Shown here: positions 5,286-32,743 of the stretch, in pieces
Layout of the letters: the number at the start of each line of letters is the position of its first letter
Position numbering within the stretch: position 1 is the stretch's first letter
Origin: Planctomycetota bacterium
Lineage (GTDB): Bacteria > Planctomycetota > MHYJ01 > JACQXL01
NCBI GenBank assembly: GCA_040753835.1
Contig: JBFMDM010000001.1
Coordinates: 1 to 63,633, forward strand
Reading direction: 5' to 3'
DNA: 63,633 bases
Notes under the pieces: model-generated
Databases searched by the model: none
What the model was told of the DNA's origin: nothing
What the model saw: only the letters and a program-made list of their open reading frames with translations
Made by a program: the position numbers and the translations under genes

Positions 5286-6311
5286 ATGAATTATTATCCC
5301 AAATTTCATACAACGAGTTATTATAAAATACCCATAATTATTCTTTTTCTGGCTGCAGCCGCCATAATCCTGCCGTCTGAGGACCAGAATCCGGAGAACA
5401 CGCCGGCAGAAGAATCATCCCAGCCTGCCCGACCGAATGACACCGGTCGTTCGGGCGGGTCGTCCCTGTTGGAGAAGAAACGCCCCGAAGATAAGATTTT
5501 CGTGGGCCAGTGGGCCAGATACCAGATCAGACGTTACAAAAAGGACGCAGCCGATGATACGATTAATGCGCTTTCAGAGGCGGATATTAAAATCAGTATT
5601 ATCGGCAAGGAAACCGTGATAGAGAACGAATACCTTTGGGCGGAATTTGTCATCAATGAGGGCAGGGCGGAACAGCGGATTGTGCGGCTGATGGCGGACA
5701 GGGAGGGCAAACCCGCGCCCGAGCGGCTGGTCCTGAAATACGGAAAACTGCCGGCCGTGGAGATACATCTCAGAATCTGGGAGGTCAAGACCAGAATCAC
5801 CCGCGAGATGCTCTTTGACGAAATGACCTCGGAACTCAACATCATCCCGTTTACCCGGATATTAACGCCCGAGGTCTTTGACGAGAGTTCGGTTACCTAC
5901 GAGACCCTGCCCATCAAGATAGGCCCGAAGGAGACCTCGCTCGGTTGCACCCGCGTGTTGTTAAAGCAGGAGGGGGCGCAACCCGCCCGACCGGACGGTC
6001 GTTCGGGCGGGGAGCCGGCGCTTTTGGCGCCGTCCGCCACAACCGGATATATCTGGTATTCGGACAAGGTGCCGCTGGCCGGGCTGGTGAAACTGCTAGT
6101 GACCGAAGACCGGTACCGGACGATGATACTTCTTACGGATTACGGCCGGGGCGGAGCCAGGTCGCTTATCAGGGAAACGCCGGCCAAACTGGATTTTAGG
6201 GAGAAAGCAGCAGCGCATCCCGTGAGGGAAGGAAATACAGCCGCAGATGACCCCTACGGGAATAACTCGCTGATAACGACCACGGGTCTAACAGCGAGTA
6301 AACACAGATGA
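5286..6311 (+). CDS. Hypothetical protein with N-terminal membrane anchor/signal
   Basis: A 341-aa ORF with hydrophobic N-terminus IPIIILFLAAAAIIL. It has two in-frame palindromes (5424-5459, 5982-6012), each encoding PARP(N/D)..GRSGG. Confidence 0.6.
   Translation: MNYYPKFHTTSYYKIPIIILFLAAAAIILPSEDQNPENTPAEESSQPARPNDTGRSGGSSLLEKKRPEDKIFVGQWARYQIRRYKKDAADDTINALSEADIKISIIGKETVIENEYLWAEFVINEGRAEQRIVRLMADREGKPAPERLVLKYGKLPAVEIHLRIWEVKTRITREMLFDEMTSELNIIPFTRILTPEVFDESSVTYETLPIKIGPKETSLGCTRVLLKQEGAQPARPDGRSGGEPALLAPSATTGYIWYSDKVPLAGLVKLLVTEDRYRTMILLTDYGRGGARSLIRETPAKLDFREKAAAHPVREGNTAADDPYGNNSLITTTGLTASKHR
5424..5459. repeat. In-frame GC-rich palindrome (CCTGCCCGA...TCGGGCGGG)
   Basis: 9-bp arms, translated as QPARPNDTGRSGGS. 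Confidence 0.7.
5982..6012. repeat. In-frame GC-rich palindrome (CCCGCCCGA...TCGGGCGGG)
   Basis: Same arms as 5424-5459, 13413-13442 and 20872-20907, translated as QPARPDGRSGGE. Confidence 0.7.
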
Positions 6312-6392
6312 ACCCCGTTAGAAAGGTCTGCAAATATAGTTATGACTATGACACATATTTGTCGTTCAGTTATAGGTCTTTCTAACGGGGTG
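6312..6392. mobile_element. 81-bp MITE-like element (TIR CCCCGTTAGAAAG) with an 11-bp target-site duplication
   Basis: The termini are accccgttagaaag... and ...ctttctaacggggtg. It is flanked by identical aacacagatga at 6301-6311 and 6393-6403. Confidence 0.75.
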
Positions 6393-6399
6393 AACACAG

Positions 6400-9300
6400 A
6401 TGAGATATAAATTCAGCATATTATTTATTCTTTTCTTCATCTGGCTCGCCCCGCTGTTTTTGTATCCCGAAGACAATCCTGAGGATGAGGATAAAATAAC
6501 CCCGGCGCCGGCTGAAGTGATATTTGACGAAGACCTGCCGGCTGATTTGGGAAAACTTATTGAGGTGGTCTATCGCTGGAAAGAGCCGCAGTCCAGCGTG
6601 GACGAGATTGTCTACAAGCGGCTGATTAAGGTCCAGGGCGCGCGGCTGGGCTGTTATTACTATGCAATGTACGCCCGGTGCAAGGATAATATCCTGGTTG
6701 GCAAAACAGCCGCGCCCGACCCGACAGGGTCCCTGCGGGATACGTGGACGCCTGAGCGGGTCCTGATGGGCGGAGAGGATATTTCCCTTGCCGTTTATAA
6801 AGGCGTGATAGAAACCCTCGCCTCGCCAGGCGCCCGCTCCGCCGAGGCGGAGACGAGGCGAGAAGCCGGCGGGGGCAAGAGCGCGGAGTATCGCATTATT
6901 TATTACCAGCAGACCCCGTATGGCCTGTTGCGTCTGGGCGAAATCAGACGCCACACGGATGAGTTTGTGCCCGATATGCGTTTTGTCAAGTGCATTGCCT
7001 CCGAAGTGGGCAAGGACACGCCGCCGACCTTGTGGCATATCGGCGCCCTGGTGTCCGGCTCGCTGGCGCTGTTTGATTATTTCAATCCCAAGGAGGAAGC
7101 GAAGAATCACGCGCCGGTTGCGGATTTCCGGACCATACCGGCCACCGGCACCATCAATACCGTTTTCTATTTTGACGCCGGCGTCTCAACCGACGCGGAC
7201 AGCCCAATAGGCGACCTGCTGGTGCGCTGGAATCTGAACGGCGACAGCGACTGGGATAATGTATTCACATTTGATAAGATAACCAGCACCTCATTCGGCG
7301 CGCCCGGGACATACAATATCGTGGCGCAGGTGCGCGACAAGGAGGGCGCATTTTCTACTATTACCAAGACGGTAACCGCCATTGCAGTCGGCCCAGGTCC
7401 CGGCTCCACGCCCCATCCGATGTTCCGCAACACCGTCACTCATACGGGAGTATCGCCTTACAACGGACCGGTGGTAACCACCACCAAATGGACCGTAACG
7501 ACCGGCGAAAGGATAGAGGCCGCTCCTTCTATCGCCTCTGACGGGACCGTCTATGTCGGCTCTTATGACGGCGCGCTGTATGCCATTCTGCCCGCAACCG
7601 GAGTCGTGTCCTGGACCAGCCCTTTGGCCGGTCCGGTTCATTCGTCTGCGGCCATAGCCACAGACGGCACGGTTTATGTGGCCGCAGATACGCGGTTGTA
7701 TGCGCTTAATCCGGCCAACGGTAATCCCTACTGGTCATACAGCACCGGCGGATTGGTGCGCTCCTCTCCGGTGATTGACTCGGACGGCACGGTTTATATC
7801 GGCTCGCTGGATAATAATCTCTATGCAGTCAATCCGGACGGCAGTTTCAAGTGGTCGTATGCCACAGGCGGGCAGATATGGTCCTCGCCCGCCATCGGGC
7901 CGGACGGCACGATTTACGTGGGCTCGCTGGATAACGGCATTTATGCGATAAACCAGAACAGCACGTTCAAATGGAAATATACGACCGGCGGCGGGATTTA
8001 TTCCTCGCCGGCCGTGGATAATTCTAACGTGGTTTATGCCGGGAGTTTGGACGGCTCGTTCTATGCGCTCAATCCGGACGGGACGCTGAAGTGGAGCATT
8101 CCGGCCGGCGGGCAGGTGTGGTCTTCAGCGGCTTTAAGCGGAACGGCGGTCTATTTCGGTTCGGATAGCGGCACCTTGTATTGCCGTAACGTTTCAAACG
8201 GCACGCCCCAATGGTCTTACCCGGCCGGCAACAGGATTCGCTCCTCGCCGACCGTGGATGCCTCGGGCCGGATTTATTTCGGAGCGGATGACGGTAAACT
8301 TTATGGCCTGGATTCGTCCGGAGCGGATTTATCTAATTGGCCGATTGACCTGTCCGGCGCCATCACACCCATCCGCTCGTCCGTGGCGATTGCCAATGCC
8401 GTGACGCCGACCCTGTATGTCGGCTCGTATGACAAGAAGATATACGCCATCGGTGCGGCCGCGCTTGACCCGGCTGACCTGGTTATCCAAAAGACAGCCA
8501 ATAAACAGCAGGTAACAATCGGCGAGGTGGTGACATATAAAATTGTAATCACCAACCAGGGTCCGGACCCGACCAATGGAACGCCGACAGCAATTATTGA
8601 CGCCATTCCGGCCGGGTTCAAGTATCTCAAGGGCTCAACCCGCCTGTCCGGCGCAGTTCAGCCGGACCCAAGCGGAAGCGATATCCTTACTTTTGACGTC
8701 GGGCATTTTACGCCCGGCTCTTCCAAGGCGTTGACCTACCAACTGGTAGTGGGAAGCGGGGTGCGCGAAGGCCGCTATGTCAACCGCGTGTATGCCGTTT
8801 ATTATTACGACCAGCCGCCGCTCACCGAGGGCAGGAGCGGTATCGCCAGGAGCGAGGTTTGGGTCGTGCCTGACCCGCTCTTTGACCTAGGCACGATTAT
8901 CGGCAAGGTATTCTGGGATAAGAACGCCAATGGAGTGCAGGATAAAGGCGAAGGCGGATACGGCGTAGCGCAGATAATAATGGAAGACGGGACGATAATT
9001 ACCGCGGACAGGAACGGCGGTTATCATATCCCGGGCGTGAAGCCGGGCACGCACCTGTTGCATCTCATGGATATTTCCGCGCACTGGATAACCACGGATA
9101 ACCCCTGCCTGGTGCGGGTTACGCCGGGCCTTCTGGTTAAGACGAATTTCGGGATTCATCCGGTGGATAAACCGCTGGATTCGTTTGTGCCGCCCCTTAA
9201 AGATATGACTTTTGTCTTATTGGGCGAGGGTGAAGTGAGCAGTATTTACGCCAACGGCAGCAATGCGGACAAGCAGGATAAGAGCGTCAGGGACGGCAAT

Positions 9301-23675: not shown

Positions 23676-25532
23676 ATGGAAAACATCATATTCTGCGGCG
23701 GATGCGGGACTTTTATCTCGGCGGCTGATATTTCAGCCGGCAAGGCATCCAAGATAAACAATATCTATTATTGCCAAAAATGTTCCACTGGCGCCCAGGC
23801 CCGGCCGGCCCAAGCCAGACCGCCGGCCCCTGCCGCAAGGCCGGCCCAGCCAGCCACGGCGCGGCCGGCTGCAATGCCGCCATTAGAGCGAGCCTCGCCT
23901 TCGGGCAGGCCGCCTCAGCAGAGACCGGCGCCCAAGCCGACTGTGCCTGTTGCACGACCCGTAGCGCCTGGCACACCGGCGGCAATGCCAGTTTCTCCGG
24001 TCCAAGCGCAAAGACCAGCGGCGCCAAGACCGGTTGCGCCCGCAAGGCAATTGGATGAGACGGTCGCCATCAACCAGCCCGCTCGGCCGTCCGCTCCGCC
24101 TTCCCGCTCTGGTGGGGTAGCGCGGCCCGCTGTGCCGCAGCAGAAAACCCAGAAGGTAATGCCTTCTACGCCGCCCAGGGTATCCCAGACCTCGCGTATC
24201 AGACAGCCCCCCGCCCCTGCGGGCGAGGCTCGCCCTTTAGGGCGGCAAGTTACCGCGGATACAGGCGGCGATGATATTGAGATTTTGGACGACGCCTCAT
24301 CCCGCAGGTTCGGCAAGGCAAAGACAGGCAAGGGCGGAAATAAGAAAATCTACCTGATTGCCGGAGCGGCCGCGGTTGTAATCATAGGCATTATTATCTG
24401 GTCGGTGTTGAGCGGTATGGCAACGGCGGCCAGGGAAAAAGAGGAGGCCGCGCGCCAGGCAAAACTCAAAAAGCAGTTTAACGCCATAGAAGAGGTTGAA
24501 AAGGACTTTGCGGACGACCCGCAGAAAATTATTGACAAGATAAAGGAACTGTCCGGCGAACTAAAAGGCACCAAATACGAGGATGAGATAAAGAAAAAGG
24601 AGGAAAACGCAAAGGCCCTGATAGAAATACTGGATAAGATAAATGAACTGGAAAAGCCGGTGGAAACAGCCGAGGAGGTTGACCAAAGGATAAAGGACAT
24701 TAGCAAACTTAAGAGCAATCCGGCCGCGGCAACCAGCAAGACGGCCGACAATAAACTCAGGGAATTGCTCAATGACTTCAGGAAAAAGCAGAAAAAGTTA
24801 GCCGAAGAGGAAAAGAAGGCGCACGAGGCGCAGGAGGCCGCGGAGAAAAAGGCCTACGAGGATTTCAAGGCAAAGATAGAACTCCTGAGAAACAGGCGGG
24901 ACTGGAAGGAGATGCTCAGGGAATGCGACATCCTTCTCGGGCGTCCCAACGGCCTGCAATACCAGGAGGAGGCGGATAAAATCAAGGAGGAGGCCAAGGC
25001 GGCGCTGGAAGAAGACCAGGAAAAGGCCAGGAAGCGCAAGGAATGGCAGGTCCTTAACGACGATATATCAAAATGGGACAGGTCCGGAGATTCCAAGGCG
25101 GAGATTTACGTGGACGAGGACAAGATACTCCTGAAGAACACGGCTTCGGCCGGCAACCGGGGCGCCGTTGCCAGCATTGCCAATAACAACGAGGGCGAGG
25201 GCTGGCAGGATTTTACGATGACCCTGGAATTCAAGGTGGTGAAGGGTTCTTTTGAAATGTTCCTGCGGGGCGGATTCCAGTCCTTTAATGTTCCGGGGCT
25301 TGGAAACTTTAGCGTCTTCAGCGGCATTCCCATTCCCTTCCCGAGGAAATTCAAGGACGAGTGGCAGAAATACACCATAGAACTGAAGGGCAAGAAACTG
25401 ACCATCAGCGGGACCGGCCTGAACGAACCCAAGGTGAGCGATGTCCCCGAGGGAAAGGGCGGAATCGGCATCAACGTAAAGGGCGGCGATGAAATAATCG
25501 TGAAAGAACTGAAAGTGAAGGTGATAGAATAA
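23676..25532 (+). CDS. Zinc-ribbon / Pro-Ala-rich / single-TM / coiled-coil protein with C-terminal DUF1080-like (LamG jelly-roll) domain
   Basis: CGGCG...CQKC ribbon, a long P/A-rich tract, TM IYLIAGAAAVVIIGIIIWSVL, a K/E-rich coiled coil, and C-terminal WQDFTMTLEFKV...KELKVKVIE. Confidence 0.7.
   Translation: MENIIFCGGCGTFISAADISAGKASKINNIYYCQKCSTGAQARPAQARPPAPAARPAQPATARPAAMPPLERASPSGRPPQQRPAPKPTVPVARPVAPGTPAAMPVSPVQAQRPAAPRPVAPARQLDETVAINQPARPSAPPSRSGGVARPAVPQQKTQKVMPSTPPRVSQTSRIRQPPAPAGEARPLGRQVTADTGGDDIEILDDASSRRFGKAKTGKGGNKKIYLIAGAAAVVIIGIIIWSVLSGMATAAREKEEAARQAKLKKQFNAIEEVEKDFADDPQKIIDKIKELSGELKGTKYEDEIKKKEENAKALIEILDKINELEKPVETAEEVDQRIKDISKLKSNPAAATSKTADNKLRELLNDFRKKQKKLAEEEKKAHEAQEAAEKKAYEDFKAKIELLRNRRDWKEMLRECDILLGRPNGLQYQEEADKIKEEAKAALEEDQEKARKRKEWQVLNDDISKWDRSGDSKAEIYVDEDKILLKNTASAGNRGAVASIANNNEGEGWQDFTMTLEFKVVKGSFEMFLRGGFQSFNVPGLGNFSVFSGIPIPFPRKFKDEWQKYTIELKGKKLTISGTGLNEPKVSDVPEGKGGIGINVKGGDEIIVKELKVKVIE
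24211..24245. repeat. In-frame string of three mini-hairpins (GCCC..GGGC, GCGAG.CTCGC, CGCCC..GGGCG)
   Basis: ccgcccctgcgggcgaggctcgccctttagggcgg is read as PAPAGEARPLGR. The same modules are intergenic at ~2318-2349, 22150-22190 and 61845-61900. Confidence 0.65.
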
Positions 25533-27062: not shown

Positions 27063-27929
27063 TTAGACAATGTATCCGACGACAGTGATATAGAGTGTAA
27101 GCGTTCCAACCCATGGCCCACCCACGGACTCCAAAGCATACTCAATCGTCCTCGGACCTGTGCCAACTACCAGCGGAACAATCCCCTGATTAGCCACCTG
27201 TGAATTCGCGCCCGGAATCAAACCCAAGCCGAGCGCATCGCGCTGGTCAGTGTTAGTTCTCACCCTGAAGAACGCCCGGCCTGTGGCAAACGACTGGTTG
27301 AAGATTCCCAGTTGCAGAATCACTGCCTTGGCCTGCGCCGGAATCCAGGGACTCAAATCAAAGACCGTGTAGGGAATATCCGCGCTGATGTCGGTCAGGT
27401 ACAGCGCCTCTACCGAAGGCGTCAGGAACGACATCCGGTCCCCACCGCCCACTCCGGGCGCTAACTTCTCGGCCGTGACTGCTCCATTCTGTATTTCACC
27501 TGTGCCGATGGCATTGTTAGCGATTTTCCCTTGCGTGATTGTATTTGTGGCAATCTTGGCATTGGTCACTGCGCCATCCGCAATCTTGAGCGCTGTTACC
27601 GCGCCGCTGGGCAGTTTATCGCCGGTCACCGCGCCATTGGCAATCTTATCGGCGCTTACCGCGTCGGTTGCCAGTTTGGTGTTGGTCACCGAACCGTCCA
27701 TCAGCGGAATCACCGAGACATCGCCGCCTAATTTGGCCAGTGTAACCGCGCCGTCCGCAATATCCTCGGTCCGGACTTGGCCCGGAGCGATATCCACTGA
27801 CTTGATGGTCTCGTCCTTGATTTTCTCCGAGGTGACTGCTTCGTTGGCAATCTTCTCCTCGGTTACCGCGCCCTCAACGATAGCAGGCGTCGTAACTTTA
27901 CCGTCAAAATATTTTGGTCTATATGTCAT
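27063..27929 (-). CDS. B-family protein, copy B1: ~14 eleven-residue repeats + GGGDR hinge + conserved C-terminal domain
   Basis: SD AAGGGGGTGA lies 5-6 nt before the ATG at 27929 (the track start at 27938 is GTG). Repeats look like GAVT.EKIA./DGAVTNAKIA. The C-terminus matches 1-377 and 59465-59830. Confidence 0.8.
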   Translation of the reverse strand: MTYRPKYFDGKVTTPAIVEGAVTEEKIANEAVTSEKIKDETIKSVDIAPGQVRTEDIADGAVTLAKLGGDVSVIPLMDGSVTNTKLATDAVSADKIANGAVTGDKLPSGAVTALKIADGAVTNAKIATNTITQGKIANNAIGTGEIQNGAVTAEKLAPGVGGGDRMSFLTPSVEALYLTDISADIPYTVFDLSPWIPAQAKAVILQLGIFNQSFATGRAFFRVRTNTDQRDALGLGLIPGANSQVANQGIVPLVVGTGPRTIEYALESVGGPWVGTLTLYITVVGYIV

Positions 27930-27987
27930 ATTTATCACCCCCTTTGTTATTCTGAATAAATGTTATCAAAAGGAGGTCGCCCAGCCC

Positions 27988-28030: not shown

Positions 28031-28837
28031 TTACGGGGTTGTCAGTCCGGTCTGTATCCAGAGATACAGCAAGCCGCCGGCGTCCTGTGCCCAGACACAG
28101 AAGCATTTGTCAGATGCCGGTGTGGTCACAAAGACGTCGCACTTGGCCGGGTCGCGCATACCGTTCAGGAGTTCGGTATTGACGAGGTTCTCCTCCTGAA
28201 GCGCCTCGGGCTTAAAATCCTGGTTGATGACCATCAATCCGCCCTGAATGATTCTCTGCTGAACCGCGGCCTTAAGAGCCACTCTTTGCCTGGACTTGGC
28301 GATGTCGTAAGGCATTCCATCGGCAAAGTCGCCGGATGAAATCCAGCCCTGCGCGCGTTCGTCGCCGACCAGATAAAAGGCCGCAATCGGCGCCACGCCG
28401 CGTCCGCGGATCCTATCACCGGTCAGCCGGAGTGTCTTAGCCATCACCTTTAGCGCCCAGCGGTCCTTGGCATTGTCCACCCGCGCCTTGAAATCCCTGG
28501 CCACCACACCGTCCTTGGTCGCGAAGACGTCATTTATCTTCTCGTTCCATTTGCTGTATGCGGTAACTATGTTCTTGGCGTGAGTCCCTCTGATGCCGGA
28601 GTCCGTACGGTCGCTCTTGGAAATAAAGCCCGGCGGAACATAAGGGCCGTAGCCCTTAGTAGACGGCGTGGCTATATCCTTGATGAATGTTGCATCATCG
28701 GGAATCTTGGCCTGCCTGCGGTCGTTCATTATCTCCGCGGCCCGTTTCAAACCCTCAGCCCAGCGGTCCGGCATATCGCCGGCCGGCTCTGCGCTTTCAG
28801 GCACATAGAGTTTTAACTCAAAATGCTTGGTAAACAT
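28031..28837 (-). CDS. A-family protein, copy A1 (268 aa, soluble, unknown function)
   Basis: SD GGGAGGTG lies 7 nt before the ATG at 28837. It is a paralog of 60644-61438 (shared blocks AEIMNDRR/AETINNRR, LRLTGDRIRGRG/LRFTGSRARGRQ, DPAK...C.VW). Confidence 0.8.
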   Translation of the reverse strand: MFTKHFELKLYVPESAEPAGDMPDRWAEGLKRAAEIMNDRRQAKIPDDATFIKDIATPSTKGYGPYVPPGFISKSDRTDSGIRGTHAKNIVTAYSKWNEKINDVFATKDGVVARDFKARVDNAKDRWALKVMAKTLRLTGDRIRGRGVAPIAAFYLVGDERAQGWISSGDFADGMPYDIAKSRQRVALKAAVQQRIIQGGLMVINQDFKPEALQEENLVNTELLNGMRDPAKCDVFVTTPASDKCFCVWAQDAGGLLYLWIQTGLTTP

Positions 28838-29565
28838 TGTTCTCACCTCCCTTGTCGTTTTGTTAGAGGGTTACGAGGTTGTCCTCCGAACTTGCGCCGG
28901 AGAAGGGCTCAAGAGAAAGGTCGATATCCTGAAGAACTATGACAATCGCCACTCCAGCAACCGCCATAGGGAGTGAATCGCCAGGAGCATCCTGCCTTCT
29001 CTCTCCTCCACCCTCTCATTGCAGGACCGGCGGTATTTTGGGGCGAAAACCAGCAAAATATGCCGAAAAAATTGCCGCAACTCTTTGTTTGGGCAGGAGA
29101 TAAAATATTTGTTGAAAAAAATGCAAAATTCTTCAAGGGGGTGTTCTTGCGGGTTTTAGCGCCCTTTAACCTTAAGAATAATCAGGCAGGGCTATACCTG
29201 TATTCAAGGAGGTACAGATTCTTGGTAAGAGGAGAAGATGTTGTTGATACGATAGGTACGGGGAGTTAACAAGAGAGAAACCGGCTCTTGTTTTAAGAAA
29301 TGTATGCTTTTATTTAGAGAGGTATCGGGGGGCGTTTAAGGGGAAGCAGGTTGCCGATCAAACAGATATGCGCTTTTATTTAAAGGGGAGCGGGCAGTTA
29401 TCCAAAGAAGTATCGGGGGTTGATTAGAGAGATATCTGTTTTTATCCAGAGAAGGTGTGGGGCCTATTTAGGTCGTAGGGGGTATCTACCCGGTAGGGAT
29501 GGGGTATTGGGTAGATTAGCAAGGGGTATTCCCCCAGTCCCCCTGCGGATAAATTGGTTTTAAGA

Positions 29566-29593
29566 TTGACAGAACTTGTGGAATTGGTAATAT
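29566..29593 (+). promoter_or_regulatory. Sigma70-type promoter for the ATPase operon
   Basis: TTGACA (29566-29571), 16 nt, then TAATAT (29588-29593). SD AAAGGAGG lies at 29601-29608 and the ATG at 29618. Confidence 0.5.
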
Positions 29594-29617
29594 TGTCTTA
29601 AAAGGAGGCATACTAAA

Positions 29618-30604
29618 ATGATAAACAAGATTCTAGAAATCAAGAATTTCAAGTCCATCAAACACCTGAAACTGGATTGCAAGAAGATAAACATCTTCAT
29701 CGGCAAGCCCAATACAGGCAAGTCCAATATTTTGGAAAGCGTGGGATTTTTCTCGCTTCTTCACGGTGCTGACCACTTTAAAAAATGGATTAGGGTTCAA
29801 AATACAACTAATTTGTTTTATGATAATGACCTATCCCAACAAATATCAATAAATATTGATAATTCCAGGGGGACTCTGAAATTTAACAACGGTTCATTTG
29901 ATGGCGAGATAAGAATGCGTATAGGAGACCAAAGACAGAGTTTTATTTTTCATACTTATTATGATCCCCGTCTTCAGTGGCAAAAAGGTTGGAATACTAA
30001 AGCACCGTTTAAATTCTATAAGTTTAACATTCAAGATTCATTTCAGAGTAGTGATGCGAATTTTTTACACCCGCCGGATGGTGATAACCTATTGACTATA
30101 TTATTAACAAGTAAATCATTGAAAAAGGCAGCGGCAGATATATTCAGTGAATATAAGTTAAGAATTGTATTAAAACCACAGGAGCGTCAAATAGAAGTTC
30201 AGAAAGAAGTTGATGATGTTGTGATTTCCTGGCCATATTCGCTCGTCTCAGATACATTACAAAGGATTGTCTTTCATTTAGCGGCTATTGAAACAAACAC
30301 GGATTCGGTGATAATATTAGAAGAGCCGGAATCCCACAGCTTCCCGTATTACACGACATTTCTGGCTGAACGGATTGCCTTAGACAAGACCAACCAGTAT
30401 TTTATTGCTACGCACAACCCGTATTTCCTATTTTCTATTCTGGAAAAAGCACCTAAAGAAGATGTTGGGATATTCATTACCTATTTTGAGGACTACCAGA
30501 CCAAGGTTAGACCAATTAAGGATGAAGAAATGGCCCAGGTTTTTGATTTGGATGATGACATCTTCCTTAATTTGGATAAATTTATAAAATCCGGGAAAGA
30601 ATAA
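29618..30604 (+). CDS. ABC/SMC-like ATPase of the AAA_15/AAA_21 type (AbiLi/AriA/OLD-N-terminal-like)
   Basis: N-terminal ILEIKNFKSIKHLKL, Walker A GKPNTGKSN, signature-like SDTLQRIV, Walker B VIILEEPE and H-loop ATHNP. The region is AT-rich. Confidence 0.8.
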   Translation: MINKILEIKNFKSIKHLKLDCKKINIFIGKPNTGKSNILESVGFFSLLHGADHFKKWIRVQNTTNLFYDNDLSQQISINIDNSRGTLKFNNGSFDGEIRMRIGDQRQSFIFHTYYDPRLQWQKGWNTKAPFKFYKFNIQDSFQSSDANFLHPPDGDNLLTILLTSKSLKKAAADIFSEYKLRIVLKPQERQIEVQKEVDDVVISWPYSLVSDTLQRIVFHLAAIETNTDSVIILEEPESHSFPYYTTFLAERIALDKTNQYFIATHNPYFLFSILEKAPKEDVGIFITYFEDYQTKVRPIKDEEMAQVFDLDDDIFLNLDKFIKSGKE

Positions 30605-30607
30605 ACA

Positions 30608-31102
30608 ATGCGATATGTAGAATGCTACAAGGACGAAACACTGGCAAAAAGATTAGGCATACCAAAACAACAGATTAGACACAGCCCCGGTAAAACCAAA
30701 CTTTGTTATGGGTTAGAAAATACAACAAACTCTAAGGGAATGATAGATGAAGAACCCTGGAGCAGAGGGAACGAGGAAATTCCTTATATAAAGAAACTAA
30801 AAACATCAAACCCACAGGGATGGAATAACTTACAGCACAGCATCAGGGTTTTAGATGACAAGGACAAGCAAAACAAATTAATTGTTTTATGCCCAAATCT
30901 GGAAGGATGGATTTTAGAGGCGGCCAAAGAGGTTAAAATAGACGTTACGAAATCACCGTATGGATTACCCGATGATAAAGACGAATTGCATAAAGTATTA
31001 GGCACTAAGACCAGAAACGAAAACTACGAAAAACTCCTGGACGCAATGCTAAAAGCCAAATCCCCGATGCTTAAAACACTGGAGCAACTCCTAAAAAAGT
31101 AA
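30608..31102 (+). CDS. Small protein, possibly Toprim-like (RloB/DUF4276/DUF4435-like partner of the ATPase)
   Basis: It starts 3 nt after the ATPase stop. An N-terminal acidic strand (YVECYKDE), GMIDEEP, and LIVLCPNLEGWILE resemble the E...DxD...(P.lE.Wl) layout of OLD-type Toprim partners. This was read by eye only. Confidence 0.35.
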   Translation: MRYVECYKDETLAKRLGIPKQQIRHSPGKTKLCYGLENTTNSKGMIDEEPWSRGNEEIPYIKKLKTSNPQGWNNLQHSIRVLDDKDKQNKLIVLCPNLEGWILEAAKEVKIDVTKSPYGLPDDKDELHKVLGTKTRNENYEKLLDAMLKAKSPMLKTLEQLLKK

Positions 31103-31106
31103 ACCG

Positions 31107-31610
31107 ATGGATAAGTTAAGAATCAAGAAAGGATTCCTTAGATTTCCAGTTATTTCACACGGTGCGGAGTTTCTCGTCCAGGGATATTTAATGCGCCGGA
31201 ATATCCTGACCTACAAAGCACCGCCTAATAATGAGGGCTACGATTTAATATGCATTCATCCCGACCCAAGGATAAAAGGCAAACAGGTAAGGATTCAGGT
31301 AAAAAGTCGTTACCAAACTGATTGTGGTTTTTGGTTCCCTGTTAAGGAAAAAACGTTTAGGGGCTTTGACTTCTTAATAGCGGTATTCCTAAATGTGGGA
31401 TATTTTTATAAGAGAGGGGTGTCTTCCGTAAACGGACAACAGATACCAGAGTTTTATACTTTCCCTGTGAGTTTTATTAGGCGACACCACGATAAAAAAT
31501 CATCTTGGCATTTGGTAAATTTAGAAGGCGTCAATATTGAAAAATATAAAAATGAAAGAGGTTTTGAACTAATCGCCAAAGCACTTAATATACCTTATCC
31601 ATCAAGATAA
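31107..31610 (+). CDS. PD-(D/E)XK nuclease-fold protein (Hjc/restriction-endonuclease-like)
   Basis: It starts 4 nt after the previous stop. The motif order is GAEFLVQGYL ... GYDLICI ... VRIQVKSR, which is E ... D ... (E/Q)xK. Confidence 0.5.
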   Translation: MDKLRIKKGFLRFPVISHGAEFLVQGYLMRRNILTYKAPPNNEGYDLICIHPDPRIKGKQVRIQVKSRYQTDCGFWFPVKEKTFRGFDFLIAVFLNVGYFYKRGVSSVNGQQIPEFYTFPVSFIRRHHDKKSSWHLVNLEGVNIEKYKNERGFELIAKALNIPYPSR

Positions 31611-31643
31611 TTATTACACCAATTAGCAATAAGGAGAATGTTT

Positions 31644-32402
31644 ATGCGCAAAGGATTCTTCATCCGCATTGGCACGCGCACCACGAGCCGCAAAAAATCA
31701 GCCATCCAGGCCGCCCTGGAGCGCCGGATGTTAGACCGGCACCTGGACTACGTCATCGCCAAATACCACCCGGCCCTGCTTTATTCCGTCCGGGAAATCG
31801 TCCTGAACCAATACGGCGCGGGCAAGATTATCGGATTTTCGCCCGAGGAGTTCGTGGATAACTGCATCAAGGACGCCTTTAGCCGCATCAGGGAATACGA
31901 CCCGAAATACAAGTTCCGGACCTTCCTGTGCAAGATGATAGTCATCCCGGCCCTGGTAAACCTCCTGCGCGAGGCAAAGAAGGAGCGCACGGCCATAGAG
32001 GCCTATGTGGCCGAGAAGAAAACCATCCAGGATTTGGAGAGCGAATTTGAGACCGCGCTCAGATACGCCCTGACCAAACAACTCTTCTTTGACGCCCTGA
32101 TGCGCTACAAGAACGAAGAGCCGATTCGCTACGAGGTCTTTTGTATGTCCTTCTATGAGAAATTATCCTATCCCAAGATTAAGGACGAACTGGGCAAACT
32201 CTACCCGCATCTGCAGGTGGAATCCAGCCGGTATGTCCGAACGCTCCACGAGCAGGCCATTAAAGGGCTGAAACACTACCTGCGCCAGACCTACCATGGC
32301 CGGAAGTATTTTGACAAAGACCTGATAATGGACGATAAATTCCTCAAACGGCTAAGGGCGGAAACAACCAAGGCGAAGGCAACCACAGATGGACGCAGAT
32401 AA
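31644..32402 (+). CDS. ECF-like sigma-70 family factor
   Basis: Region 2-like CIKDAFSRIREYDPKYKFRTFLCKMIVIPALVNLLRE and region 4-like RYEVFCMSFYEKLSYPKIKDELG...YVRTLHEQAIKGLKHYLRQ. The SD AAGGAGA touches the first ATG (31638), so the second ATG (31644) is preferred. Confidence 0.65.
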   Translation: MRKGFFIRIGTRTTSRKKSAIQAALERRMLDRHLDYVIAKYHPALLYSVREIVLNQYGAGKIIGFSPEEFVDNCIKDAFSRIREYDPKYKFRTFLCKMIVIPALVNLLREAKKERTAIEAYVAEKKTIQDLESEFETALRYALTKQLFFDALMRYKNEEPIRYEVFCMSFYEKLSYPKIKDELGKLYPHLQVESSRYVRTLHEQAIKGLKHYLRQTYHGRKYFDKDLIMDDKFLKRLRAETTKAKATTDGRR

Positions 32403-32455: not shown

Positions 32456-32743
32456 ATGGGTGATGAATATGTAAAAGATAAAGATAAAAACCAGATATTA
32501 TCTGAACTTAAAGGCACTGCTCTTCCAGGTTCCGTCGTGCATGAACAGCAAAAAATGGCAATTATGATAAGGTGTACGGAAGATATAGAGAAAACTATTG
32601 AAGGATTACGCAAACAGATTGAATTATCAACAAAAGAAACATCATCTTTAAATCGCGGAGTATTTTGGTTAACGTTCATTTTAGCTGTAGCAACAGTGGT
32701 TGGTGCTTTTGCCACTGTATGGAATGTCTTCTGTAAAAAATAA
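32456..32743 (+). CDS. Small tail-anchored membrane protein (possible minimal anti-sigma or effector)
   Basis: 95 aa with a C-terminal TM (VFWLTFILAVATVVGAFATVW) and an SD-like AGAAAGGA. The region is AT-rich. Confidence 0.45.
   Translation: MGDEYVKDKDKNQILSELKGTALPGSVVHEQQKMAIMIRCTEDIEKTIEGLRKQIELSTKETSSLNRGVFWLTFILAVATVVGAFATVWNVFCKK

Follow-up and report, generated by a model that had tools for sequence, protein, structure and literature searches.

An AT-rich islet in a Planctomycetota bacterium: a conserved ABC ATPase–partner gene pair, possibly of the Toprim type, beside a solitary PD-(D/E)XK nuclease gene

A stretch of 63,633 nucleotides (nt) from a Planctomycetota bacterium (assembly GCA_040753835.1, contig JBFMDM010000001.1, positions 1–63,633; hereafter the window) was analysed, with attention to an AT-rich islet of three co-directional genes at positions 29566–31610 of the forward strand. 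The reading favoured here, with reasonable confidence, is that the islet consists of two evolutionarily independent modules: a gene pair (genes 1 and 2) similar to OLD, AbiL and MAD3–MAD4, encoding an ABC ATPase and a small acidic-motif partner, and a solitary DREN-like nuclease gene (gene 3). Both modules are probably transcribed from one promoter. The original prediction, made from the sequence of the window, had taken the three genes as a single candidate anti-phage system; that grouping did not hold, since no gene 3 homologue was detected within 6 kb of the pair in any of about 40 pair loci, and no homologue of gene 1 or gene 2 was detected near gene 3 homologues in any of 88 loci.

Conservation of the gene pair and distribution of the third gene

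Gene 1 (29618–30604, + strand) encodes 328 amino acids (aa) and gene 2 (30608–31102, +) 164 aa. The pair loci comprised 35 GTDB loci, about 8 metagenome contigs and the genes gp15-gp16 of Geoglobus ahangari pleomorphic virus 1 (GahPV1), an integrated pleolipovirus. A gene 1 homologue was located directly upstream of every complete gene 2 homologue, in about 40 bacterial and archaeal loci; these gene 1 homologues showed 39–62% identity to gene 1, with E-values from 1e-74 to 1e-133, and the two genes overlapped by 4 nt at 30 of 38 junctions. The hosts were Zixibacteria, Nitrospinota, Dehalococcoidia, Bacteroidota and Spirochaetota, together with Methanoperedens, Halobacteria, Archaeoglobaceae, Thermoplasmatales and Aenigmarchaeota. 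It is the translationally coupled gene 1–gene 2 pair that forms the conserved unit. Conservation as a unit, which had been proposed for all three genes, was therefore borne out for genes 1 and 2, found together everywhere, and failed for gene 3, found with the pair nowhere else.

Within lineages the pair persisted at syntenic sites (L001/L039, L004/L005 and L031/L033/L037), which indicates some vertical retention. In the loci L001 and L039 (5021–7784) and L004 and L005 (3403–6459) the pair was located within housekeeping operons, with 4-nt overlaps with its neighbours. Examples of these operons were DUF512 radical-SAM gene, pair, EngA/Der, and OmpH-LpxD followed by the pair, an organization that is unusual for a mobile defence cassette.

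Gene 3 (31107–31610, +) encodes 167 aa and has a much larger set of relatives, with more than 2267 clusters at 90% identity; in metagenomes at least 556 loci were found. The best 120 homologues were 57–75% identical to gene 3. Elsewhere these homologues stand alone, behind upstream regions of their own. Where the closest gene 2 homologues are encoded, the pair was followed on the contig by a PncB-like or a convergent gene, and not by gene 3. No Pfam family recurred in more than 2 of the 142 proteins neighbouring gene 3 homologues (about 76 distinct loci), and the sole recurrent neighbour was a diverged gene 3 paralogue with an E..D..QVK motif, present in 7 of 88 loci. In these loci (L050, L051, L056, L064, L079, L080 and L083) the paralogue had 160–171 aa, was placed directly downstream and carried GxE..., YD and QVK elements. 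Such an arrangement suggests that these small nucleases form tandem or heteromeric pairs. DNA similarity between gene 3 and its close homologues ended at the ends of the coding sequence, with the third-position variation typical of purifying selection; as the similarity is confined to the coding sequence, gene 3 is not an element with conserved ends that has been spreading recently. It is a solo, independent gene, next to the pair only in this genome.

Predicted properties of the three proteins

Genes 2 and 3 are labelled as hypothetical proteins in database records. All three open reading frames (ORFs) have homologues under purifying selection and are therefore real genes, and all peptide motifs quoted in the original prediction were present at the residues indicated for them.

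The product of gene 1 is a predicted compact ABC ATPase of the AAA_15/AAA_21 ('OLD-ABC') type, proposed here as the sensor or regulator subunit. It matched Pfam AAA_15 (1.6e-12, 48.2 bits; cut-off 32.1) and AAA_21 (7.5e-10, 39.8 bits; cut-off 27). Among the PADLOC models, full-length matches were obtained with AbiLi (6.6e-15, profile positions 3–304 of 340, about 53 bits) and NsnB (1.4e-13, profile positions 1–317 of 345), and partial matches with GajA, AriA (3.5e-12 to 4.9e-11), HEC-01A and Old, those to GajA and Old covering only their ATPase parts. In NCBIfam the matches were N-terminal and below threshold, to the retron Eco8 effector, MAD3 and RecF only; that to MADS3 reached 1.1e-8 and 34.7 bits against a cut-off of 420. 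No match was found against PDB sequences. These Pfam, PADLOC and NCBIfam results agree with the earlier assignment of gene 1 to the ATPase class of AbiL, PARIS, Gabija and OLD. Its motifs begin at residues 29 (GKPNTGKSN), 211 (SDTLQR), 233 (ILEEPE) and 264 (ATHNP), and the residues of Walker A (G29, G34, K35, S36), the signature (S211, T213, R216), Walker B (E235–E238) and H266 were at least 90% conserved in 32 homologues. Conservation at all four sites, from Walker A to the H-loop, speaks for an active ATPase. Judged from its sequence, gene 1 encodes an intact AAA_15/AAA_21 ABC ATPase of a distinct 'OLD-ABC' clade, which lies outside the named families and is not RecF.

For gene 2, with motifs at residues 3 (YVEC), 46 (IDEEP) and 96 (PNLEGW), a word-indexed search recovered five relatives. 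An exhaustive search with a hidden Markov model (HMM), seeded with the alignment from those relatives, recovered a family that, at E ≤ 1e-3, comprised 1120 clusters at 50% identity (700 of them at E ≤ 1e-10), and the best 150 matches were almost all of 145–165 aa. In an alignment of 121 sequences E5, D47, P96 and E99 were invariant and C6, D9, H25, E48, D49, P50, L98, W101 and H128 near-invariant. The resulting pattern is hhVEC..D, about 42 residues and DEDP, plus a P..E.W motif. The classic Toprim motifs are reportedly, after Aravind et al. 1998, a Glu that follows beta1 and a DxD that follows beta3, and the spacing of hhVEC..D and DEDP would fit these two motifs.

Among the 121 family members, 15 matched NCBIfam antiphage_MADS4 (the next family was matched by 3), 3 matched PADLOC mad4 and 5 matched AbiLii (best 3e-4); the MAD4 matches had E-values of 0.014 or worse and at most about 15 bits, against a cut-off of 160. 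One relative, P0256, was aligned with AbiLii over residues 73–156, on profile positions 41–124 of 125. The same protein bears the Joint Genome Institute (JGI) name 'uncharacterized protein (DUF1778 family)', which has no Pfam support and looks like an annotation artefact. Gene 2 itself did not match AbiLii in PADLOC, the Pfam scan of the 121 relatives gave no match to Toprim, DUF4276, RloB or DUF4435, and the family profile did not match any PDB sequence. The gene 2 family is real, with proteins of about 150 aa and alpha/beta type, and has no model in Pfam or PADLOC. A minimal Toprim-like nuclease effector, similar to MAD4/DUF4276 and AbiLii, is the most likely reading of gene 2, and a moderately probable one. 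From the mini-Toprim proposal made at the outset, the motifs stood and were joined by weak, recurrent MAD4 and AbiLii matches; support from Pfam, the PDB or a predicted fold was not obtained.

Gene 3 encodes a predicted stand-alone DREN/DUF4365-like PD-(D/E)XK nuclease, with motifs at residues 19 (GAEF), 44 (GYDLI) and 63 (IQVKS). Its AlphaFold2 (AF2) model, with a predicted local distance difference test (pLDDT) value of 84, had a PD-(D/E)XK fold. The top Foldseek matches in the PDB were the N-domain of Eco15I (7e-5), the DREN domain of SPARDA (3e-4) and I-Ssp6803I (4e-4), with further matches to Hjc resolvases, EcoRV and SwaI; all top matches were PD-(D/E)XK nucleases. Against a viral structure library the matches were small phage PD-(D/E)XK proteins, a DUF4365 protein and RecU. 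Residues E21, D46, Q64 and K66 were invariant in 37 sequences. The restriction-endonuclease fold with an E..D..QxK arrangement, proposed earlier by eye, was thus supported by both the structural comparison and the residue conservation. The match to Pfam DUF4365 reached 12.0 bits (E = 0.23), below the gathering threshold of 24.3, and the gene 3 profile gave only spurious cytochrome b5 matches among PDB sequences.

The catalytic residues of the NbaSPARDA DREN domain are D41, Q60 and K62, and the isolated domain is monomeric and inactive, being active as an I-Ssp6803I-like tetramer (PMC12205087). As the catalytic set of DREN contains a Gln, the 'QxK' of gene 3 is compatible with catalysis. According to the structural model, the gene 3 product is a nuclease of the PD-(D/E)XK type whose D..QxK site is that of DREN. 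An autonomous action as an oligomeric endonuclease is most likely, and roles in modification-dependent restriction, structure-specific cleavage or homing are conceivable.

Foreign composition, genomic context and alternative explanations

The G+C content of the three genes was 37.3%, against a mean of 52% for the window, and was the lowest among all its 2-kb segments (z = -4.25). At third codon positions (GC3) it was 0.36–0.41 in genes 1–3, versus 0.56–0.75 in flanking genes. The G+C values counted by hand in the original prediction for 60-nt segments were correct (0.35 at 29641 and 0.317 at 30001 inside the islet; 0.50 at 28501 and 0.65 at 31681), and so was its view of the block as compositionally foreign. 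In each of 33 loci the pair had more A+T than its flanks (8.8 points on average), and gene 3 homologues exceeded theirs in 47 of 55 loci, with an average G+C of 0.50 elsewhere. The closest gene 1 homologue was archaeal (Methanoperedens, 62% identity), and the homologous pair gp15-gp16 of GahPV1 showed 54% and 41% identity. The AT-rich block is a horizontally acquired islet, and the support for horizontal mobility is strong.

In GahPV1 the pair was located at positions 5364–6805 of BK065157.1 (L130), with a winged helix-turn-helix (wHTH) regulator on either side and a RelE/ParE toxin nearby; this ATPase and small-protein pair goes unmentioned in the paper on the virus. Around the planctomycete islet no flanking direct (att-like) repeats and no nearby tRNA were found, and the gaps of 3–4 nt between the genes rule out attC-type cassettes.

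Upstream of gene 1 a sigma-70-like promoter match was located at 29566–29593 (+), with TTGACA, a 16-nt spacer, TAATAT and an extended -10 TG; it agrees with the consensus at 10 of 12 positions and is a consensus match only, the promoter rules for Planctomycetota not being established. A Shine-Dalgarno (SD)-like AAGGAGG at 29602–29608 (+), 9 nt before the gene 1 ATG, was read directly in the sequence and is likewise a consensus match. Genes 1 and 2 are separated by 3 nt and genes 2 and 3 by 4 nt. The three ORFs, their spacing and both upstream matches were confirmed as first described.

By analogy with related ATPase–nuclease systems, a defence role is proposed for the pair. An oligomer of the gene 1 ATPase would sequester the gene 2 nuclease in an inactive state, and a signal of viral or plasmid invasion would, through the binding or hydrolysis of ATP, release or activate it; the freed nuclease would then cleave nucleic acid (tRNA or DNA), so that growth is arrested and the infection aborted. 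Such a module would also behave as a toxin–antitoxin pair.

Several results weigh against a defence-type pair with a Toprim-like partner, or against its full separation from gene 3. The neighbours of the pair were mostly housekeeping genes (EngA/Der, DUF512, LpxD/OmpH, PurL-type and enolase-superfamily genes), with a minority of defence or mobile type (Uma2, type IIG restriction–modification, mad2/mad8, a DRT-like reverse transcriptase and HerA), and in several genomes the pair was set within a housekeeping operon whose genes it joins through overlapping stop and start codons, a setting unlike that of a classic defence island. The support from defence islands is therefore weak. No copy of the pair was found in the viral contigs of IMG/VR. 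For gene 2, no match lay above any curated threshold, and the similarity to MADS4, where coordinates were visible, was local, covering about 35 residues at the beta4 PRLEEW region. The family and sub-family consensus sequences had no PADLOC match, P0256 alone accounting for the weak mad4 and AbiLii matches in that scan. The AF2 model of gene 2 was poor (pLDDT 64, with residues 27–89 below 50), having been built on a shallow alignment of 6 sequences, and Foldseek returned only noise from it. Finally, genes 1–3 probably arrived together and are co-transcribed here, because they share a low GC3 and gene 3 has no space for a promoter of its own, and this would be in line with a functional link among them.

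Three alternatives were considered. The pair could be a selfish addiction cassette, similar to toxin–antitoxin systems, that is maintained by post-segregational killing and has no anti-phage role. In favour of this, the pair is small, AT-rich, patchily distributed, translationally coupled and inserted among housekeeping genes; the provirus copy lies near a RelE toxin, and PARIS itself behaves as a type II toxin–antitoxin system (PMC13064643). However, PARIS is both, so that addiction is compatible with defence; moreover, all ATPase motifs are kept, which points to a regulated sensor rather than a simple antitoxin, and some vertical persistence was observed at syntenic sites within lineages. 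This explanation is regarded as unlikely, with a modest chance of being correct.

A genuine three-gene system, with the mini-Toprim and the DREN-like nuclease both under the control of the ABC ATPase, which could for example drive oligomerisation of the DREN type, is considered improbable. Speaking for it are the 4-nt junction between genes 2 and 3, which leaves room for neither a promoter nor an SD sequence, and the common GC3 of 0.36–0.41, versus 0.50 G+C in gene 3 homologues, which suggests a shared donor of low G+C content; the need of the otherwise inactive DREN monomer for tetramerisation (PMC12205087) is also in its favour. Nevertheless, gene 3 is missing from the pair loci, including the closest ones, and the pair from the gene 3 loci; the homologues of gene 3 stand alone behind separate upstream regions, and the downstream slot of the pair is filled elsewhere by unrelated genes. 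A functional link between gene 3 and the pair restricted to this locus is given only a slim chance. It is similarly doubtful, as a combined proposal, that the pair represents a minimal stand-alone class of nuclease immunity controlled by an ABC ATPase, and that it possibly took up a DREN-like nuclease here as a third effector under shared control.

A housekeeping DNA-repair mediator of the RecF/RecR type is very improbable: RecF-RecR is likewise an SMC-like ATPase with a Toprim protein, gene 1 matches TIGR00611 RecF at 8.4e-8 and some pairs lie inside housekeeping operons, but the RecF match covers the P-loop only (residues 6–52; 31.7 bits versus a cut-off of 172), gene 2 lacks the helix-hairpin-helix (HhH) and zinc-finger region of RecR and matched no RecR model, and the foreign composition in 33 of 33 loci, the inter-domain transfer and the carriage by a provirus argue against it.

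On the preferred reading, a conserved ATPase–partner pair beside an independent nuclease gene, the pair, if active, would be the smallest known immune architecture to pair an ABC ATPase with a Toprim protein (328 + about 150 aa) and a convenient minimal model for an ATPase that holds and releases a nuclease. It would also be a widespread bacterial and archaeal cassette, carried as well by an archaeal virus, that is missed by current defence finders; PADLOC models would miss it because the small subunit has no model. The stand-alone DREN-like nucleases to which gene 3 belongs form a very large and highly conserved family, with 60–75% identity between members from different phyla and with no annotation or conserved partner. 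Both the gene 2 and the gene 3 families deserve a Pfam or PADLOC model.

Within the window, the flanks of the islet consist of ordinary chromosomal genes, encoding an epimerase, an HtrA-like protease, a metallo-beta-lactamase (MBL) hydrolase and CsgG-like, extracytoplasmic function (ECF)-sigma-like and Ser/Thr kinase-tetratricopeptide repeat (TPR) proteins. The 770-nt intergenic spacer upstream of gene 1 contains, before the promoter match, degenerate 66-nt direct repeats at 29295–29471, with a 22/44-nt sub-period. In the region 29295–29540 three units of about 28 nt were spaced at 66 nt, each with a 'TTTTATTTAGAGAGG'-like part and a G-run; the search with Tandem Repeats Finder (TRF) for repeats in the upstream spacer was empty. 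The Rfam search of this spacer for non-coding RNA, including retron-like RNA, was also empty, and its fold z-score was only -2.1. Further upstream, the ORF at 27063–27938 (−), of 291 aa, consists mostly of short repeats ('DGAVT.EKI / NGAVT.DKL') and has no Pfam match, as was the case for the genes at 23676–25532 and 28031–28846.

On the other side, the gene at 31638–32402 (+), 27 nt 3' of gene 3, has a host-like GC3 of 0.73, its own SD sequence and a sub-threshold similarity to ECF sigma-70 (TIGR02937, 1.2e-7). No terminator-like site was seen between gene 3 and this gene, so that transcription from the islet promoter may continue into it. A second small AT-rich islet, at 32456–32743 (+), is formed by an ORF of 95 aa with a G+C of 0.35 and a GC3 of 0.25, flanked by the genes for the ECF-sigma-like and Ser/Thr kinase-TPR proteins; its product has a hydrophobic C-terminal stretch and no Pfam match.

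Comparison with known systems

The motifs of the ATPases of the OLD-like ABC ATPase and Toprim class were all found in gene 1, and the pair shows the conserved, co-directional ATPase–partner unit of that class. AbiL and MADS3-4 have been grouped with PARIS and OLD (PMC12065111, PMC11464382), and a nuclease is bound and controlled by an oligomer of an ABC ATPase in PARIS, Septu, Gabija and the predicted Menshen complex (PMC11464382, PMC12065111).

With MAD3–MAD4 the pair shares the combination of an ABC ATPase of the AAA_15/21 class and a small protein with an acidic site, MAD4 being a DUF4276 protein and both DUF4276 and RloB having been assigned to the Toprim superfamily (PMC12065111). It differs in that the pair scores far below the cut-offs and the gene 2 family has about 150 aa, versus the 206 positions of the MAD4 profile. 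The MADS model requires MAD6–MAD8 plus a methyltransferase, and MAD3 and MAD4 above the curated cut-offs, whereas the pair stands alone here. Membership in MADS was rejected: MAD3 and MAD4 were below cut-off, and the nearby Ser/Thr kinase is generic, with 86 bits versus 460 for MAD6. No methyltransferase was found among the flanking proteins scanned with Pfam; the MAD7 and MAD8 models were not run on the flanks.

AbiL and the Campylobacter RloAB system are likewise two-gene operons in which the ATPase gene precedes that of the small effector, and the AbiLi profile was aligned with gene 1 along its full length; nevertheless, the similarity to AbiL is weak (about 53 bits), no Pfam RloB match was obtained, and gene 2 is shorter. 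In the case of Menshen, gene 1 is aligned with NsnB over its full length. NsnB is predicted to bind and regulate an effector, and among the NsnC effectors there are Toprims of the DUF4276 or RloB type (PMC12065111). Here, however, gene 1 has no DUF3696 match in Pfam, and upstream of it there is no DUF262 NsnA, the 770-nt spacer being followed by divergent genes without a Pfam match. Gabija and the class 1–2 OLD systems were also discarded, as no Toprim domain is fused to the 328-aa gene 1 product and no helicase (GajB UvrD) is adjacent.

Gene 3 is comparable to the DREN domain of SPARDA and to I-Ssp6803I, its D46, Q64 and K66 corresponding to D41, Q60 and K62 of DREN with a near-identical spacing, although the template modelling (TM) scores were only 0.45–0.56. 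In contrast to SPARDA it is free-standing, with neither an APAZ domain nor an Argonaute partner, and in contrast to I-Ssp6803I it lies outside any intron.

PARIS (OLD class 4) also combines an ATPase with a separate nuclease, may share with the pair the same logic of sequestration and trigger-dependent release, and, like the pair, is carried by mobile elements or viruses. It differs in size, gene 2 with 164 aa being half of AriB (about 300 aa, a DUF4435 Toprim) and gene 1 with 328 aa much smaller than AriA, of about 53–55 kDa (PMC11464382); no DUF4435 or AriB match was found for gene 2 or its 121 relatives. Clearly fitting none of the named families tested, the pair is, on the sequence features described above, best filed as a compact and so far unnamed variant of the OLD-like ABC ATPase and Toprim kind.

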